Source: Escherichia coli
Lineage (GTDB): Bacteria > Pseudomonadota > Gammaproteobacteria > Enterobacterales > Enterobacteriaceae
Reading direction: 5' to 3' (one strand)
Length of the DNA stretch: 64,000 bases
Assembly (NCBI RefSeq): GCF_048403405.1
Contig: NZ_CP183129.1
The notes under the pieces were generated by a model. The model saw only the letters and a list, made by a program, of their open reading frames with translations. It was not told the DNA's origin and did not search any database. Position 1 is the first letter of the stretch; every line of letters begins with the position of its first letter. The position numbers and the translations under genes are program-made. Below, in pieces: positions 1,845 to 39,241 of this stretch.

Positions 1845-3244
1845 ACACTCGCCAGCTACTGAGCGTCGGTATCGATATCGGCACCACCACCACCCAGGTG
1901 ATTTTCTCCCACCTGGAGCTGGTTAACCGTGCGGCGGTGTCGCAGGTGCCGCGCTACGAATTCATCAAACGCGAAATTAGCTGGCAAAGCCCGGTGTTCT
2001 TTACCCCTGTCGATAAACAGGGTGGTTTAAAAGAAGCGGAACTGAAAACCTTAATCCTGGAGCAATATCAGGCTGCGGGCATTGCGCCGGAAAGTGTTGA
2101 TTCTGGTGCCATCATCATCACCGGTGAAAGCGCGAAAACCCGCAACGCTCGCCCGGCGGTGATGACGCTCTCCCAGTCTCTGGGCGATTTTGTCGTCGCC
2201 AGCGCCGGGCCGCATCTCGAATCCGTGATCGCCGGTCACGGTGCCGGGGCGCAAACCCTTTCTGAACAACGGCTGTGTCGGGTACTGAATATCGATATCG
2301 GCGGTGGCACTGCGAACTACGCCCTGTTCGATGCCGGAAAAATCAGCGGCACCGCCTGCCTCAACGTCGGCGGTCGCCTGCTGGAAACCGACAGCCAGGG
2401 GCGCGTGGTTTACGCTCATAAACCGGGGCAGATGATTGTGGATGAGTGCTTCGGCGCAGGCACCGACGCCCGTTCGCTGACCGGCGCGCAGCTGGTGCAG
2501 GTTACCCGGCGGATGGCAGAGCTGATTGTCGAAGTGATTGACGGAACGCTTTCGCCGCTCGCGCAGGCATTAATGCAAACCGGTTTGCTGCCCGCAGGTG
2601 TTACGCCCGAAATCATTACGCTTTCTGGCGGCGTGGGCGAATGTTATCGCCACCAGCCCGCCGACCCGTTCTGTTTTGCCGATATCGGCCCGCTTCTGGC
2701 AACGGCGCTGCATGACCATCCGCGCCTGCGTGAGATGAACGTGCAGTTTCCGGCGCAAACCGTACGCGCCACGGTGATTGGCGCGGGTGCACATACCCTT
2801 TCGCTCTCTGGCAGCACAATCTGGCTGGAGGGCGTACAACTGCCGCTGCGCAATTTGCCGGTGGCGATCCCAATTGATGAAACGGATCTGGTGAGTGCCT
2901 GGCAACAGGCGCTGATTCAGCTGGATCTTGATCCCAATTCTGACGCGTACGTGCTGGCGCTTCCCGCCTCGCTGCCTGTGCGTTACGCCGCGGTACTGAC
3001 GGTCATCAACGCGCTGGTCGATTTCGTCGCGCGTTTTCCGAATCCGCATCCCCTGCTGGTGGTGGCCGGGCAGGACTTTGGTAAAGCTCTGGGCATGTTG
3101 TTGCGCCCACAGCTACAACAACTCCCGTTGGCAGTCATTGACGAAGTGATTGTCCGCGCGGGGGACTATATCGACATTGGTACGCCTCTTTTTGGCGGAT
3201 CGGTTGTGCCGGTGACGGTGAAATCACTCGCATTTCCTTCCTGA
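1841..3244 (+). CDS. eutA: EutA, ethanolamine ammonia-lyase reactivase
   Basis: 467-aa ORF overlapping the eutH stop by 4 bp. Confidence 0.9.
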   Translation: MNTRQLLSVGIDIGTTTTQVIFSHLELVNRAAVSQVPRYEFIKREISWQSPVFFTPVDKQGGLKEAELKTLILEQYQAAGIAPESVDSGAIIITGESAKTRNARPAVMTLSQSLGDFVVASAGPHLESVIAGHGAGAQTLSEQRLCRVLNIDIGGGTANYALFDAGKISGTACLNVGGRLLETDSQGRVVYAHKPGQMIVDECFGAGTDARSLTGAQLVQVTRRMAELIVEVIDGTLSPLAQALMQTGLLPAGVTPEIITLSGGVGECYRHQPADPFCFADIGPLLATALHDHPRLREMNVQFPAQTVRATVIGAGAHTLSLSGSTIWLEGVQLPLRNLPVAIPIDETDLVSAWQQALIQLDLDPNSDAYVLALPASLPVRYAAVLTVINALVDFVARFPNPHPLLVVAGQDFGKALGMLLRPQLQQLPLAVIDEVIVRAGDYIDIGTPLFGGSVVPVTVKSLAFPS

Positions 3245-11305: not shown

Positions 11306-12289
<984 letters not shown>

Positions 12290-12310
12290 GCGTTTCTGAT
12301 TCATTGATTA

Positions 12311-12346
12311 AAGGCCAGCCAGTAACACAACTGACTGGCCTTTTTA
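12311..12346 (+). terminator. Rho-independent terminator after yfeX
   Basis: Hairpin aaaggccagccagt / actgactggccttt followed by a T-run. Confidence 0.6.
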
Positions 12347-12374
12347 TTACTGCTTTAACGCCGCATACACTTGA

Positions 12375-12464
12375 TCAACTACTTTCTGTCAGAACAGGGT
12401 ATTTTGCGGCGCTGACGCTACAGCTGACAGCCAGCAGAGAAAGATAGAGCATTGTCCGTTTCAT
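12375..12464 (-). pseudogene. yfeW: yfeW (PBP4B) 5' stub: 29 codons encoding a signal peptide (MKRTMLYLSLLAVSCSVSAAKYPVLTESS) then stop
   Basis: Short ORF starting 5 bp after the murP stop, in the position K-12 yfeW occupies; no room for a ~434-aa gene before yfeX. Confidence 0.45.
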
Positions 12465-12468
12465 GATA

Positions 12469-13893
<1,425 letters not shown>

Positions 13894-13896
13894 GGG

Positions 13897-14793
13897 TTAT
13901 TCCTTGTCTAAAACCTGACGAATAAAGCCGCCGTGTTGATCCAGGCGTTTTTTAGCTTCTGCGGCATCGAGATTTTTCAGCACCATCACAATGGCCGTTT
14001 TACAGTTGCGCTCGCAGGCAACCAATGCCGCTTCCGCTTGCTCTGCGCTACATCCGGTAGCGTTTTTGACGATATTGACCTGGCGCACATGCAGTTTTTC
14101 GTTGGTGGCGACCACATCGACCATCAGGTTGCCGAACACTTTGCCGGATTTAATCATCAGCCCGGTGGAGAGCATATTGAGCACCAGTTTCTGCGCTGTA
14201 CCTGCTTTCATCCGCGAAGAACCGGTAACCACTTCGGCACCTACAATCGGTGTAATGGCAAACTCTGCGGTGGTTGAAACGGCGCTCCCCGGATTACAGG
14301 AAATTCCCACTGTGCGGCAACCGAGCTGGCGGGCGTATTCCAGTCCGGCAATCACATACGGCGTACGACCGCTGGCGGCAATACCGACCACCACATCCTG
14401 TGCCGTTAAATTAATATTTTTCAGATCGTTAACGCCGCCTTCCCGGCTATCTTCCGCGCCTTCCACCGCGTGCTGAATGGCATATTCGCCGCCAGCAATC
14501 AAACCAACTACCAGGCCCGGTTTCACGCCGTAGGTCGGCGGACATTCACTGGCATCAAGAATACCCAGACGACCAGAGGTCCCCGCACCGATGTAAATCA
14601 GACGGCCGCCGCCGCTCACCTGGGCGTGAATAACATCGATCGCCGCTGCAATATCCGGCAGTACGCGCTCAACGGCGAGTGGTACGGTTTTATCTTCATC
14701 GTTGATAATCCGGCACATTTCCAGCGTCGAAACGCGGTCAATTTCAGCCGAGGCGGCATTCGAGCCTTCGGTAATCATCTTTTCAAGTTGCAT
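13897..14793 (-). CDS. murQ: MurQ, N-acetylmuramic acid 6-phosphate etherase
   Basis: 298-aa SIS-domain ORF. Confidence 0.9.
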
Positions 14794-16742: not shown

Positions 16743-16912
16743 TTCACCTCTGTTTCCTCCCTGCATTTGTGGGGAGGATTTCGTCTTGAACCCGGTTCTT
16801 ATTCCCTTTTCAACTTCCAAATCACCAAACGGTATATAAAACCGTTACTCCTTTCACGTCCGTTATAAATATGATGGCTCTTAGAAAGTCATTAAATTTA
16901 TAAGGGTGCGCA

Positions 16913-21771: not shown

Positions 21772-22231
<460 letters not shown>

Positions 22232-32637: not shown

Positions 32638-33564
32638 ATGAATTATTCTTTAAAACAATTAAAGGTTTTCGTCACAGTAGCGCAGGAGAAAAGTTTTAGT
32701 CGTGCAGGAGAGCGTATCGGCCTGAGCCAGTCGGCAGTGAGTCACAGTGTGAAGGAGCTGGAATATCATACTGGTGTTCGCCTGCTGGACAGAACCACGC
32801 GTGAAGTGGTGCTTACAGATGCAGGGCAGCAGTTGGCTTTGCGTCTTGAGCGACTGCTGGATGAACTGAACAGCACGTTGCGCGATACCGGGCGTATGGG
32901 GCAACAACTGAGCGGAAAAGTTCGGGTCGCTGCCAGCCAGACCATTTCCGCGCATCTTATTCCGCAATGCATTGCTGAAAGCCATCGCCGCTATCCAGAT
33001 ATTCAGTTTGTCCTGCACGATCGTCCGCAGCAGTGGGTGATGGAAAGTATTCGTCAGGGAGATGTCGACTTTGGCATCGTCATCGATCCAGGCCCAGTGG
33101 GCGATCTGCAATGTGAAGCGATTCTTTCCGAGCCTTTCTTTCTGCTTTGCCATCGCGATAGCGCTTTGGCCGTGGAAGATTATGTACCCTGGCAGGCATT
33201 ACAGGGAGCGAAATTGGTGTTGCAGGATTACGCGTCAGGCAGCCGACCGCTGATTGACGCAGCGCTGGCGCGCAATGGTATTCAGGCGAATATTGTGCAG
33301 GAGATTGGACATCCGGCGACGCTGTTCCCGATGGTAGCCGCAGGCATCGGCATTAGTATTCTTCCCGCACTGGCGCTGCCGTTACCTGAAGGTAGCCCGC
33401 TGGTGGTAAAGCGCATTACGCCGGTGGTGGAACGCCAGTTGATGCTGGTGCGCAGGAAGAACCGTTCACTTTCCACCGCCGCACAAGCGTTATGGGACGT
33501 GGTACGAGGCCAGGGCCGTGCGCTAATGGCTGGGCGGGAAGGGGAGCCGCTGTATCAGATATAG
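32638..33564 (+). CDS. yfeR: YfeR, LysR-family regulator
   Basis: 308-aa ORF with N-terminal LysR HTH. Confidence 0.88.
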
Positions 33565-33896
33565 ATATCGATCTGAGTCGTTTTTTCAACAGGATTTGGA
33601 AGGGATGCATTCAAAGACAAACGCTGCTCTTTCTCCTGCGCCTTTTCTGCCTGCTGTCTTTGCAACTGCGCCAGTTGTGTTTCCAGTAGGGTGATTTGCT
33701 GCTGAATCAATTCGGCCTGTTTTTGCTTGTCTTCAGCACTGCCGCTAGTGTCTGCAATCTCTTTAATTTGTTGAGTGAGTTTGATGATTTGCTGACTTAT
33801 CCGCGCAATTTGTGAAGCAACATCGCTACCTTCTGATGCCCTGTTACTACTCTGTGTTTGTATGGAAGGAATTGAAGTTGGAGAGATAGTGGCCAT
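33555..33896 (-). CDS. Hypothetical Gln-rich coiled-coil protein (FlxA-like), 113 aa
   Basis: ORF with heptad-like LQxQ repeats in the position where K-12 carries yfeN-xapABR; assignment by resemblance only. Confidence 0.4.
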
Positions 33897-33982
33897 TGTT
33901 CAGTCCTCGTCACTGTACGAGGTAATATCGGCAGAAGAACAAGGAACTTGAGAAGAAAAATCAATCTTACAAACCGCATATA

Positions 33983-36136: not shown

Positions 36137-36210
36137 TTTATCCGGTGCGCCGTAAAACCCCGTCCTTCAGGGCGGGGATATAAGGCGCGGTTTTCCACCT
36201 GACCAGGTGT

Positions 36211-36630
36211 TTGCTGTTGTTCAATGTATTGGCGGATGACGGATATTGGCGCACCTCCGCAGCTACTGGCAAAATAGCCAGGACTCCACAAAACGCCTTT
36301 GTAGTAATACCTGACGGCAATATCTGGTCGATCTCGTCGCAGTCACCTACCCGATACGCCTTTGAGGCTGTTTACCAGACTGGATATCGCCAGTTTGGGA
36401 GGATAGTTAATTAACAAATGGACGTGATCTGGTTCGCCATCCATTTCAACCAGTTCAGCTTCAAAATCAGCACATACCTTTGAAAAGTAAGTGCGTAGTT
36501 TTTCTGTCGCGTCATGGTCAAAAATCTGGCGTCGGTATCTGGTGACAAAGACCAGGTGAACATGCATCAGGAAAACACAATGCCTTCCACGCCGGATATC
36601 GGTTTCTTTTTTCACAGACCAAAGTATCAT
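36211..36630 (-). pseudogene. tnpA: tnpA (IS200/IS605 Y1 HuH transposase) interrupted by an in-frame TGA at 36343-36345
   Basis: N-terminal ORF 36343..36630 carries HuH (PDHVHLLI); the same frame continues after the stop through RLRRDRPDIAVRYYYKGVLWSPGYFASSCGGAPISVIRQYIEQQ (ORF 36088..36291). Confidence 0.7.
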
Positions 36631-36637
36631 TTGGCCT

Positions 36638-37846
36638 GTGAAACGACTACAGGCATTTAAATTCCAGTTAAGACCCGGTGGTCAACAGGAGCGTGAAATG
36701 AGGCGCTTCGCAGGCGCATGTCGTTTCGTTTTCAATCGTGCTCTGGCGCTTCAGAATGAGAATCATGAGGCCGGTAATAAATACATCCCTTACGGGAAAA
36801 TGGCTTCCTGGCTGGTTGAGTGGAAAAACGCCACTGAAACGCAATGGCTTAAAGATTCGCCCTCACAGCCATTGCAACAGTCACTGAAAGACCTTGAGCG
36901 GGCTTACAAAAACTTCTTCCGGAAGCGGGCTGCTTTTCCCCGATTCAAAAAGCGGGGACAGAATGATGCATTCCGCTACCCGCAGGGCGTTAAGCTCGAT
37001 CAGGAAAACAGCCGTATTTTTCTGCCGAAACTTGGCTGGATGCGCTACCGGAATAGCCGTCAGGTCACGGGTGTTGTGAAAAATGTCACTGTCTGCCAGT
37101 CCTGCGGTAAGTGGTACATCAGTATTCAGACAGAAAGTGAAGTATCAACTCCGGTTCACCCTTCAGCATCAATGGTCGGGCTGGATGCTGGCGTGGCTAA
37201 ACTCGCCACGCTGTCAGATGGCACAGTCTTTGAGCCTGTAAACAGTTTTCAGAAAAACCAGAAGAAGCTGGCGAGACTTCAGCGACAGTTAAGCCGCAAG
37301 GTCAAATTCAGCAACAACTGGCAGAAGCAGAAACGCAAAATACAGCGACTGCATTCCTGTATCGCAAATATCCGCAGGGACTACCTTCATAAAGTCACAA
37401 CGACCGTCAGCAAAAACCACGCAATGATAGTCATTGAGGATTTGAAGGTCAGTAACATGTCAAAGTCAGCAGCGGGTACGGTCAGCCAGCCGCGGCGCAA
37501 TGTCCGGGCAAAATCAGGTTTAAACCGTTCGATACTGGATCAGGGCAGGTATGAAATGCGCCGCCAGCTTGAGTACAAGCAGCTCTGGCGTGGCGGTCAG
37601 GTGCTTGCTGTTCCGCCAGCGTACACAAGCCAGCGTTGCGCGTGCTGTGGTCATACAGCGAAAGAAAATCGCCTGTCACAAAGTCAATTCAGATGCCAGG
37701 TATGTGGATATACAGCGAACGCCGATGTAAACGGCGCTCGTAACATTTTAGCGGCGGGGCACGCCGTTCTTGCCTGTGGAGAGATGGTGCAGTCAGGCCG
37801 CCCGTTGAAGCAGGAACCCACCGAAATGATTCAGGCGACAGCCTGA
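36638..37846 (+). CDS. tnpB: TnpB (IS605 OrfB-type RuvC-like nuclease), 402 aa, GTG start
   Basis: N-terminal KFQLRP...FNRAL; RuvC-I GLDAGV, RuvC-II VIEDLK, CxxC...CxxC zinc finger (CACCGH...CQVCGY), Ruv[13 protein letters not shown]. Confidence 0.85.
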
Positions 37847-37901
37847 ACGTAGCAGGGATCCTCGTCATTCAGGGCGTGGAGGATGTCAAGCTGATTCATC
37901 T
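37700..37901 (+). ncRNA. Predicted TnpB-associated right-end guide RNA (omega RNA) region; extent not determined
   Basis: Inferred from the known organisation of IS200/IS605 elements (RNA overlaps the tnpB 3' end and right end, guide read from flank); no sequence-level proof here. Confidence 0.3.
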
Positions 37902-38170
37902 ATGTCGAGACGAGCAAGGAAATTACGAATTCCTTCGCGTGACAAAAATTGCGCAACTTTTTCCTGCTCACTGTGAGTCATGTTGTCTATTGCGCTGATG
38001 ATTTGCCGATAAGCAGGAGTGCGAATCCCCGGTGCGTATTCGGCAAGGGGTTCTTCGGCTTCCAGAAGCATCGGCGTGTTATGGAAGGCTGGCGTGTTCT
38101 GAATAAACTCGCAAACTTGCGTATCGACCAGAATAAGTCTGGCACGACCGCCTTTCACGCCAGGAAATTT
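37886..38170 (-). pseudogene. yfeD: yfeD 3' segment (codons 37-130) of an HTH-type DNA-binding protein split by the IS110-family insertion
   Basis: ORF 37886..38158 plus in-frame upstream codons KFPG; paralogous to yfeC. Confidence 0.8.
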
Positions 38171-38236
38171 AATGAGATGGTCACTCCCTCCTTCCCGGTA
38201 CTATGCTGAGGACAGGCTTTCATTCGGAGAACTATC

Positions 38237-39241
38237 ATGGAAAACATTGCGCTCATTGGTATCGATCTGGGTAAAAACTCTTTCCATATTCATTGCCAGG
38301 ATCGTCGCGGGAAGGCTGTTTACCGTAAAAAATTTACCCGGCCAAAGTTGATCGAATTTTTGGCGACATGCCCCGCTACAACCATCGCAATGGAAGCCTG
38401 TGGCGGTTCTCACTTTATGGCACGCAAGTTGGAAGAGTTGGGGCATTCCCCAAAGCTGATATCACCACAATTTGTCCGCCCGTTCGTTAAAAGCAATAAA
38501 AACGACTTTGTCGACGCCGAAGCTATTTGTGAAGCTGCATCGCGTCCGTCTATGCGTTTTGTGCAGCCCAGAACGGAATCTCAGCAGGCAATGCGGGCTC
38601 TGCATCGTGTCCGTGAATCCCTGGTTCAGGATAAGGTAAAAACAACCAATCAAATGCATGCTTTTCTGCTGGAATTTGGCATTAGCGTTCCCCGAGGAGC
38701 TGCCGTTATTAGCCGACTGAGTACCATTCTTGAGGATAATAGTTTGCCTCTTTACCTCAGCCAGTTATTGCTGAAATTACAACAGCATTATCACTATCTT
38801 GTTGAGCAGATTAAAGATTTGGAATCCCAGTTGAAACGAAAGTTGGACGAAGATGAGGTTGGACAGCGCTTGCTGAGCATTCCCTGCGTCGGAACACTGA
38901 CAGCGAGTACTATTTCAACTGAGATTGGCGACGGGAAGCAGTACGCCAGCAGCCGTGACTTTGCGGCGGCAACAGGGCTTGTACCTCGGCAGTACAGCAC
39001 GGGAGGTAGGACGACATTGCTGGGAATTAGTAAGCGAGGTAATAAAAAGATCCGAACTTTGTTGGTTCAATGTGCCAGGGTATTCATACAAAAACTGGAA
39101 CACCAGTCTGGCAAATTGGCCGATTGGGTCAGGGATTTACTGTGCCGGAAAAGCAACTTTGTCGTCACTTGTGCTCTGGCAAACAAGCTGGCCAGAATAG
39201 CCTGGGCCCTAACGGCACGACAGCAAACTTATGTAGCATAA
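38237..39241 (+). CDS. IS110-family DEDD transposase/recombinase, 334 aa
   Basis: N-terminal RuvC-like motifs (IGIDLGK, MEACG, DFVDAEA) and C-terminal domain with conserved Ser (VPRQYSTGG). Confidence 0.85.
   Translation: MENIALIGIDLGKNSFHIHCQDRRGKAVYRKKFTRPKLIEFLATCPATTIAMEACGGSHFMARKLEELGHSPKLISPQFVRPFVKSNKNDFVDAEAICEAASRPSMRFVQPRTESQQAMRALHRVRESLVQDKVKTTNQMHAFLLEFGISVPRGAAVISRLSTILEDNSLPLYLSQLLLKLQQHYHYLVEQIKDLESQLKRKLDEDEVGQRLLSIPCVGTLTASTISTEIGDGKQYASSRDFAAATGLVPRQYSTGGRTTLLGISKRGNKKIRTLLVQCARVFIQKLEHQSGKLADWVRDLLCRKSNFVVTCALANKLARIAWALTARQQTYVA

Follow-up and report, generated by a model that had tools for sequence, protein, structure and literature searches.

A pbp4b (yfeW) pseudogene remnant, probably left by one ancient internal deletion, between yfeX and murP in Escherichia coli

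The murQ operon, in the order murQ-murP-yfeW, has as its third and last gene pbp4b (yfeW), which encodes the low-affinity PBP PBP4B (PMC5061867). According to a second study (PMC4916385, citing Vega & Ayala 2006), PBP4B is made at only ~20-30 molecules per generation, belongs to a set of eight redundant class C PBPs that are deletable together, and its deletion can be combined with that of other DD-carboxypeptidases. The annotated gene order in K-12 MG1655 is yfeY, yfeX, then on the opposite strand pbp4b, murP and murQ, followed by murR. K-12 pbp4b measures 1,305 bp, encodes 434 aa and starts 4 nt past murP. This agrees with the map given in the original prediction, a reading of the letters alone, which had placed yfeW (about 434 aa) between murP and yfeX.

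The window analyzed here is a 64,000-nucleotide stretch of an E. coli genome (assembly GCF_048403405.1, contig NZ_CP183129.1). It carries the K-12 locus on the same strand and with the same 4-nt spacing from murP; the first 27 codons are protein-identical to those of K-12 pbp4b, the last 11 codons and the stop codon are also present, and a hairpin follows the gene in both. We put at about 95% the probability that window positions 12347-12464 are a pseudogene remnant of pbp4b (yfeW) generated by one ancient 1,184-bp deletion, that the strain is without PBP4B, and that the allele has spread by recombination. None of the observations speaks against the deletion as such.

Layout of the yfeX-murP interval

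The locus comprises the following features, given in window coordinates.

11390-12289, plus strand: yfeX (porphyrinogen peroxidase), intact, 299 aa; from the ORF and the PGAP annotation of the 100%-identical strain WP4-S18-ESBL-07 (L002 991-1890)
12310-12345, either strand: single GC-rich hairpin with a T5 run; from fold energies, conserved in all deletion and intact alleles examined
12347-12382, minus strand: pbp4b 3' remnant, with the original stop codon (12347-12349), the last 11 codons (...VVDQVYAALKQ-stop) and a deletion-linked SNP at 12371; from blastn and tblastn to K-12 and an ungapped walk against strain KGu016
12381-12382, no strand: deletion junction, 'AC' being common to both breakpoints (2 bp against KGu016, 1 bp against K-12), with 1,184 bp missing between
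12383-12464, minus strand: pbp4b 5' remnant, with the start codon and first 27 codons, a signal-peptide-like N-terminus; DNA 97.6% identical to K-12 pbp4b nt 1-83
12375-12464, minus strand: 29-codon stub ORF made by the frameshift; its TGA stop (12375-12377) lies inside the 3' remnant
12469-13893, minus strand: murP (PTS MurNAc transporter IIBC), intact, 474 aa; TGA at 12469-12471
13897-14793, minus strand: murQ (MurNAc-6-P etherase), intact, 298 aa
14965-15822, plus strand: murR (divergent repressor of the murQ operon), intact, 285 aa; from the ORF and K-12 annotation, in collinear alignment

The gap between yfeX and murP spans 12290-12468 and measures 179 bp. The original prediction had described a separation of 180 bp and a 29-codon minus-strand ORF 5 bp past murP; the short gap and the ORF (12375-12464) both stand, with the size of the gap corrected to 179 bp and the spacing of the ORF to 4 nt. 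It had also proposed that yfeW was deleted, leaving a signal-peptide stub. That interpretation is supported with refinements: the gene is indeed lost, but its removal beyond the stub was not complete, as a stretch from the far end of the gene survives at 12347-12382.

The endpoints, which the prediction had left to an alignment with K-12, were defined by that alignment and by a second one to the closer intact relative KGu016. Both place in pbp4b an internal, frameshifting deletion of 1,184 bp with its junction at 12381/12382, and both gene ends are kept, 82-84 nt at the 5' end and 34-36 nt, including the stop codon, at the 3' end. In blastn the window matches K-12 in three pieces, namely yfeX with the hairpin, a 39-nt piece from the 3' end of pbp4b, and an 83-nt piece from its 5' end that continues into murP. 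Blastn and ungapped walks set the breakpoints at 1817/3001 on the K-12 reference (L001) and 1818/3001 on that of KGu016 (L004). Against KGu016, whose pbp4b is 1,302 bp long, the left alignment holds through window position 12382 and the right one back to 12381, with a difference in offset of 1,184 bp. Window positions 12347-12382 correspond to the last 36 nt of the KGu016-type gene, whose 3' end and stop codon adjoin the yfeX-side hairpin, and the whole remnant (12347-12464) amounts to 118 nt, that is, 1,302 minus 1,184. Because both ends of pbp4b match in the window, the gene was not cut out cleanly but lost an internal segment. The junction reads CAACTAC/TTTCTG. As the breakpoints share only 1-2 bp ('AC'), illegitimate rather than homologous recombination is indicated.

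At the protein level, tblastn with K-12 PBP4B aligned residues 1-29 at 12464-12378 and residues 423-433 at 12382-12350, and neither tblastn nor blastn with K-12 PBP4B found other PBP4B-like sequence in the 64-kb window beyond these two remnants. The missing residues, ~28-421, comprise the whole catalytic domain (a serine beta-lactamase/DD-peptidase fold, class-C beta-lactamase-like), which is absent from the entire window. The ancestral allele was most likely of the 1,302-bp type whose product ends in KQ, from which one illegitimate deletion at 1-2 bp of microhomology most likely took out 1,184 bp; the frame shifts at that point and the reading frame ends after 29 codons.

The hairpin that had been noticed on the yfeX side is confirmed by a strong fold at 12310-12345. 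The segment 12300-12352 folds with -19.8 kcal/mol on the plus strand (z -5.3) and -24.5 kcal/mol on the minus strand (z -6.4), and 0 of 200 shuffles folded as well. A T5 run at 12341-12345 follows the stem on the plus strand, the yfeX side, whereas the minus strand, the side of the murQ operon, has only UUUAAU. The plus-strand stem holds unpaired bases at 12319 and 12334, and a simple consensus terminator scan of 12150-12600 on both strands called no terminator. The hairpin is probably a bidirectional intrinsic terminator, putatively serving yfeX on the plus strand and the murQ operon on the minus strand. PMC5061867 marks a terminator downstream of K-12 yfeW and credits it to Jaeger & Mayer 2008. 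In the deletion allele the murQ-murP transcript would run through the 118-nt remnant into the same hairpin that closed the operon before.

In K-12 the yfeX-pbp4b spacer is longer by ~184 bp of REP/BIME-like sequence, flanked by a duplicated hairpin (L001 1560-1591 and 1744-1775). This insert (L001 1592-1775) maps between window positions 12343 and 12344, and the two hairpin copies are near-identical, as if the insertion had duplicated a hairpin target; strain 63-2 has the same 239-bp spacer as K-12. A 57-bp spacer with one hairpin is found in KGu016, O157, RIVM_C037791, JNE112863 and AH25, the same as in the window. Since the closest intact alleles have the window's 57-bp spacer, the insert is to be regarded as a separate polymorphism on the K-12 side, outside the pbp4b deletion. 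A second deletion, within the yfeX-pbp4b spacer of the window, was also considered and is ruled out, because KGu016, O157-type and other intact alleles share the 57-bp spacer.

Frequency of the deletion allele and loss of PBP4B

The population sample consisted of 5,426 complete E. coli genomes. A 1-kb probe across the junction was contiguous in 1,274 of the 5,426 genomes, with 100% identity to NZ_AP022087.1, and a 70-bp junction probe was fully covered in 1,268/5,426. The deleted 1,183-bp segment gave a match of any kind in 4,153 of the 5,426 (4,150 at a coverage of at least 80%). In total the 1-kb probe matched 9,577 places, which fits ~1,274 genomes with the probe in one piece and ~4,151 with it in two. 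The deletion is thus present at a frequency of ~23% of complete E. coli genomes, and its carriers include the widely used strains BL21 and Nissle 1917. Because the junction and deleted-segment classes are nearly complementary, carriers would as a rule have no relocated copy of pbp4b, a rule that rests on counts from other genomes. Eight out of ten evenly spaced sampled carriers had the 999-bp allele type of Nissle 1917, in which the murP-stub spacer is 2 nt as against 4 nt in the window; most carriers in the collection therefore have this allele type.

At the position of the stub PGAP gives the label 'hypothetical protein, incomplete, missing C-terminus' (pseudogene) in WP4-S18-ESBL-07, BL21-RIPL, Nissle 1917, E302, 2015C-4136CT1 and 2021CK-01784. 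The RefSeq/PGAP pseudogene of WP4-S18-ESBL-07 is 100% identical to the window feature, and those of the other five strains have the same junction with point substitutions only; in none of these records is the parent gene named. Inactivation of pbp4b is an ordinary gene-loss polymorphism whose inactive state is already known, being flagged as a pseudogene in RefSeq. A search of the available literature on yfeW/PBP4B found no paper explicitly describing this pbp4b deletion. Added here are the exact endpoints and the survival of both gene ends, the chance 'SS' that closes the stub, the ~23% frequency, and the case for a single origin with recombination and for decay of the stub. For annotation, the 29-codon ORF is better labeled a pbp4b (yfeW) pseudogene remnant than a 'hypothetical protein', and the strain PBP4B-negative.

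The strain presumably makes no PBP4B, a non-essential cell-wall enzyme. Uptake and catabolism of MurNAc should be unaffected because murQ, murP and murR are full length. The loss has minor relevance for counting DD-carboxypeptidases and for MurNAc recycling in BL21, Nissle 1917 and B2 clinical strains compared with K-12. As most carriers have the allele type of Nissle 1917, a B2 strain, it is conceivable that loss of PBP4B is adaptive in the lineages concerned, through altered peptidoglycan trimming or recycling tied to MurNAc uptake. Another conceivable reading is that the coupled stub retains a residual role in murP expression. We regard both as very improbable; if either were true, the presence/absence polymorphism of pbp4b would be maintained, rather than a matter of drift.

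The stub reading frame and its variation

The stub ORF (12375-12464) encodes MKRTMLYLSLLAVSCSVSAAKYPVLTESS followed by a stop codon. Its ATG (12462-12464) lies 4 nt past the murP stop, the spacing also seen in K-12, KGu016 and O157. An in-frame upstream ATG inside murP extends the mechanical ORF to 12375-12551 (58 aa), and the pbp4b start is the ATG at 12464. True pbp4b sequence in the stub is limited to 27 codons and 2 nt, since the final SS-stop comes from the out-of-frame 3' remnant. The match of this 'SS' to K-12 residues 28-29 is evidently a coincidence only (AGT AGT TGA versus AGC TCG CCA). By inspection only, the stub appears to have the layout of a signal peptide, with MKR as the basic n-region, TMLYLSLLAVSC as the hydrophobic h-region and SVSA-AK holding a small-x-small cleavage motif.

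The identity of the stub with the YfeW N-terminus, proposed in the original prediction, is borne out by the tblastn match to PBP4B residues 1-29 at 100% (E 7e-12) and by the NCBIfam equivalog model for PBP4B, NF002968, which matches over positions 1-28. In hmmscan this model scored 890 bits with the K-12 protein and 25.7 bits with the stub (E 4.7e-6), for a curated cut-off of 385 bits. A score below the cut-off classes the stub as a predicted pseudogene remnant, not a functional member of the PBP4B family.

Seven deletion alleles were compared, six of them distinct: the window, WP4-S18 (identical to the window), BL21-RIPL, Nissle 1917, 2015C-4136CT1, E302 and 2021CK-01784. In the first 82 nt of the gene, seven intact alleles vary at two sites, each of them a third codon position, and residues 1-32 are the same in all seven. 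Over the same 82 nt the six distinct deletion alleles have nine variable sites, seven of them at codon positions 1 or 2, and the changes in the stub among carriers are V13I, Y22F, L25Q, T26I, T26A and S28G. Among carriers, 7/55 sites at codon positions 1 and 2 vary in the remnant, versus 22/1550 in the flanking yfeX and murP (Fisher p = 3e-5). Because carriers vary at codon positions 1 and 2 where intact alleles do not, constraint appears to be relaxed, and in these small samples (six deletion alleles, seven intact alleles, 82 nt) the stub looks like a pseudogene decaying after inactivation.

The stub may still be weakly translated from its native start 4 nt past murP, yielding a signal peptide and ~10 further residues. 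Retention of that start and of the signal-peptide-like N-terminus, together with V13I as the sole difference among carriers over residues 1-20 (the signal-peptide part), would be consistent with a 29-codon ORF kept because its product is a functional small peptide, secreted or in the membrane, or because it serves translational coupling to the benefit of murP expression or mRNA stability. Such a role is highly unlikely, given that carriers vary at residues 13, 22, 25, 26 and 28 within a stretch (1-32) that is invariant in seven diverse intact alleles, and that 7/9 of the variable remnant sites fall at codon positions 1 and 2. PGAP, moreover, treats the stub as a pseudogene, and the parent protein itself is made, according to the study cited above, in only ~20-30 copies per generation (PMC4916385). 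The stub probably lacks a function and is probably not under selection.

Origin of the deletion allele and other differences from K-12

The junction is identical to the base in 7/7 carrier alleles, whose flanks are 3-3.6% apart. At position 12371, 10 nt from the junction, the 6/6 distinct deletion alleles have T and the 7/7 intact alleles have C, the sole fixed difference between the two groups, and the gene ends in KQ-stop in all deletion alleles examined. The shared junction, the private T at 12371, the common KQ-stop end and a microhomology of only 1-2 bp together indicate that the deletion has a single origin, for which the junction with its linked SNP is a convenient marker. The closest intact state is that of KGu016, RIVM_C037791 and JNE112863, which have the 57-bp spacer, the single hairpin and the gene end of the window; they differ from it in possessing the full 1,302-bp gene and C where the window has T at 12371. 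K-12 pbp4b ends in KQK-stop (1,305 bp), in contrast to the KQ-stop end of the window's parent allele (1,302 bp).

Over the first 500 nt of murP, the window is 1 nt different from the intact alleles of KGu016 and RIVM_C037791, versus 21 nt from that of JNE112863, also intact. The yfeX tail and intergenic region of BL21 are identical to those of the intact K-12, O157, 63-2 and AH25. As carrier flanks are shared with intact alleles, the deletion allele appears to have been moved by recombination onto many haplotypes, and is either old or has moved repeatedly on very short tracts. Its age can be put only qualitatively, for a younger allele spread horizontally on very short tracts would look similar. 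The deletion allele would thus have persisted and been recombined into many E. coli backgrounds, a small and clean example of an old deletion allele shuffled by recombination onto many flanking haplotypes of the species.

Carriers whose flanking haplotypes lie 3-3.6% apart, among them BL21 (phylogroup A) and Nissle 1917 (phylogroup B2), could also be accounted for by a deletion that recurs independently at a hotspot in different lineages. This explanation has a very low probability. The breakpoints offer a microhomology of 1-2 bp only, without a repeat to drive recurrence, the junction is the same to the base in the seven alleles compared, and 1,268 genomes match the junction probe over its full length; the private SNP 10 nt away and the KQ-stop end are, in addition, common to all carriers examined.

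The presence or absence of pbp4b as a unit across the population might further suggest that the short arrangement is ancestral and that K-12-type strains gained the gene by insertion between murP and yfeX. The odds of this are close to negligible: both ends of the coding sequence remain in the window, collinear with the intact gene, and an insertion would leave no matching start and end fragments in empty sites. The missing 1,184 bp are not a multiple of 3, so the frame is broken, and decay of the remnant is seen only in short alleles. Since both gene ends survive in the remnant, the event is established as a loss. An assembly or sequencing artefact (a collapsed region) can be dismissed, as 1,268 complete genomes, finished independently and including those of BL21 and Nissle 1917, have the same junction.

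Several other differences from K-12 and relatives were observed at and beyond the locus. KGu016 has an IS200/IS605-family tnpA between yfeY and yfeX (L004 245-703) that is absent from the window. At window positions 16786-16791, ~128 bp of the K-12 ucpA-cysP intergenic region (2547682-2547808) are missing, possibly a REP-type insert in K-12, and at 21774-21775 the window is without ~958 bp of the K-12 yfeK-cysM interval (2541734-2542691, containing the WGR-domain gene yfeS). The CPZ-55 prophage that splits the eut operon of K-12 (intZ to yffS, 2562735-2569507) is absent at the eutA/eutB junction (window 3222-3244), where the eut operon is uninterrupted, and at 42792-42803 the window does not have the IS4-like copy of IS421 found after nupC in K-12 (~2518312-2519648). 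The K-12 block yfeN-xapA-xapB-xapR (~4.4 kb) is replaced at 33563-33970 by ~400 bp, and a Gln-rich, coiled-coil-looking ORF of 113 aa (33555-33896, minus strand) lies in its place. Between gltX and the tRNA-Ala genes (36142-39496), the window holds two mobile elements absent in K-12. The first, of the IS200/IS605 type, combines a truncated TnpA (36343-36630, minus strand, 95 aa) with an RNA-guided TnpB of full length (36638-37846, plus strand, 402 aa; NF040570, 381 bits). The second encodes an RNA-guided transposase of the IS110 family (38237-39241, plus strand, 334 aa; NF033542, 341 bits) and is apparently inserted in yfeD, a segment of which (37890-38170), 86% identical to K-12, lies between the two elements.
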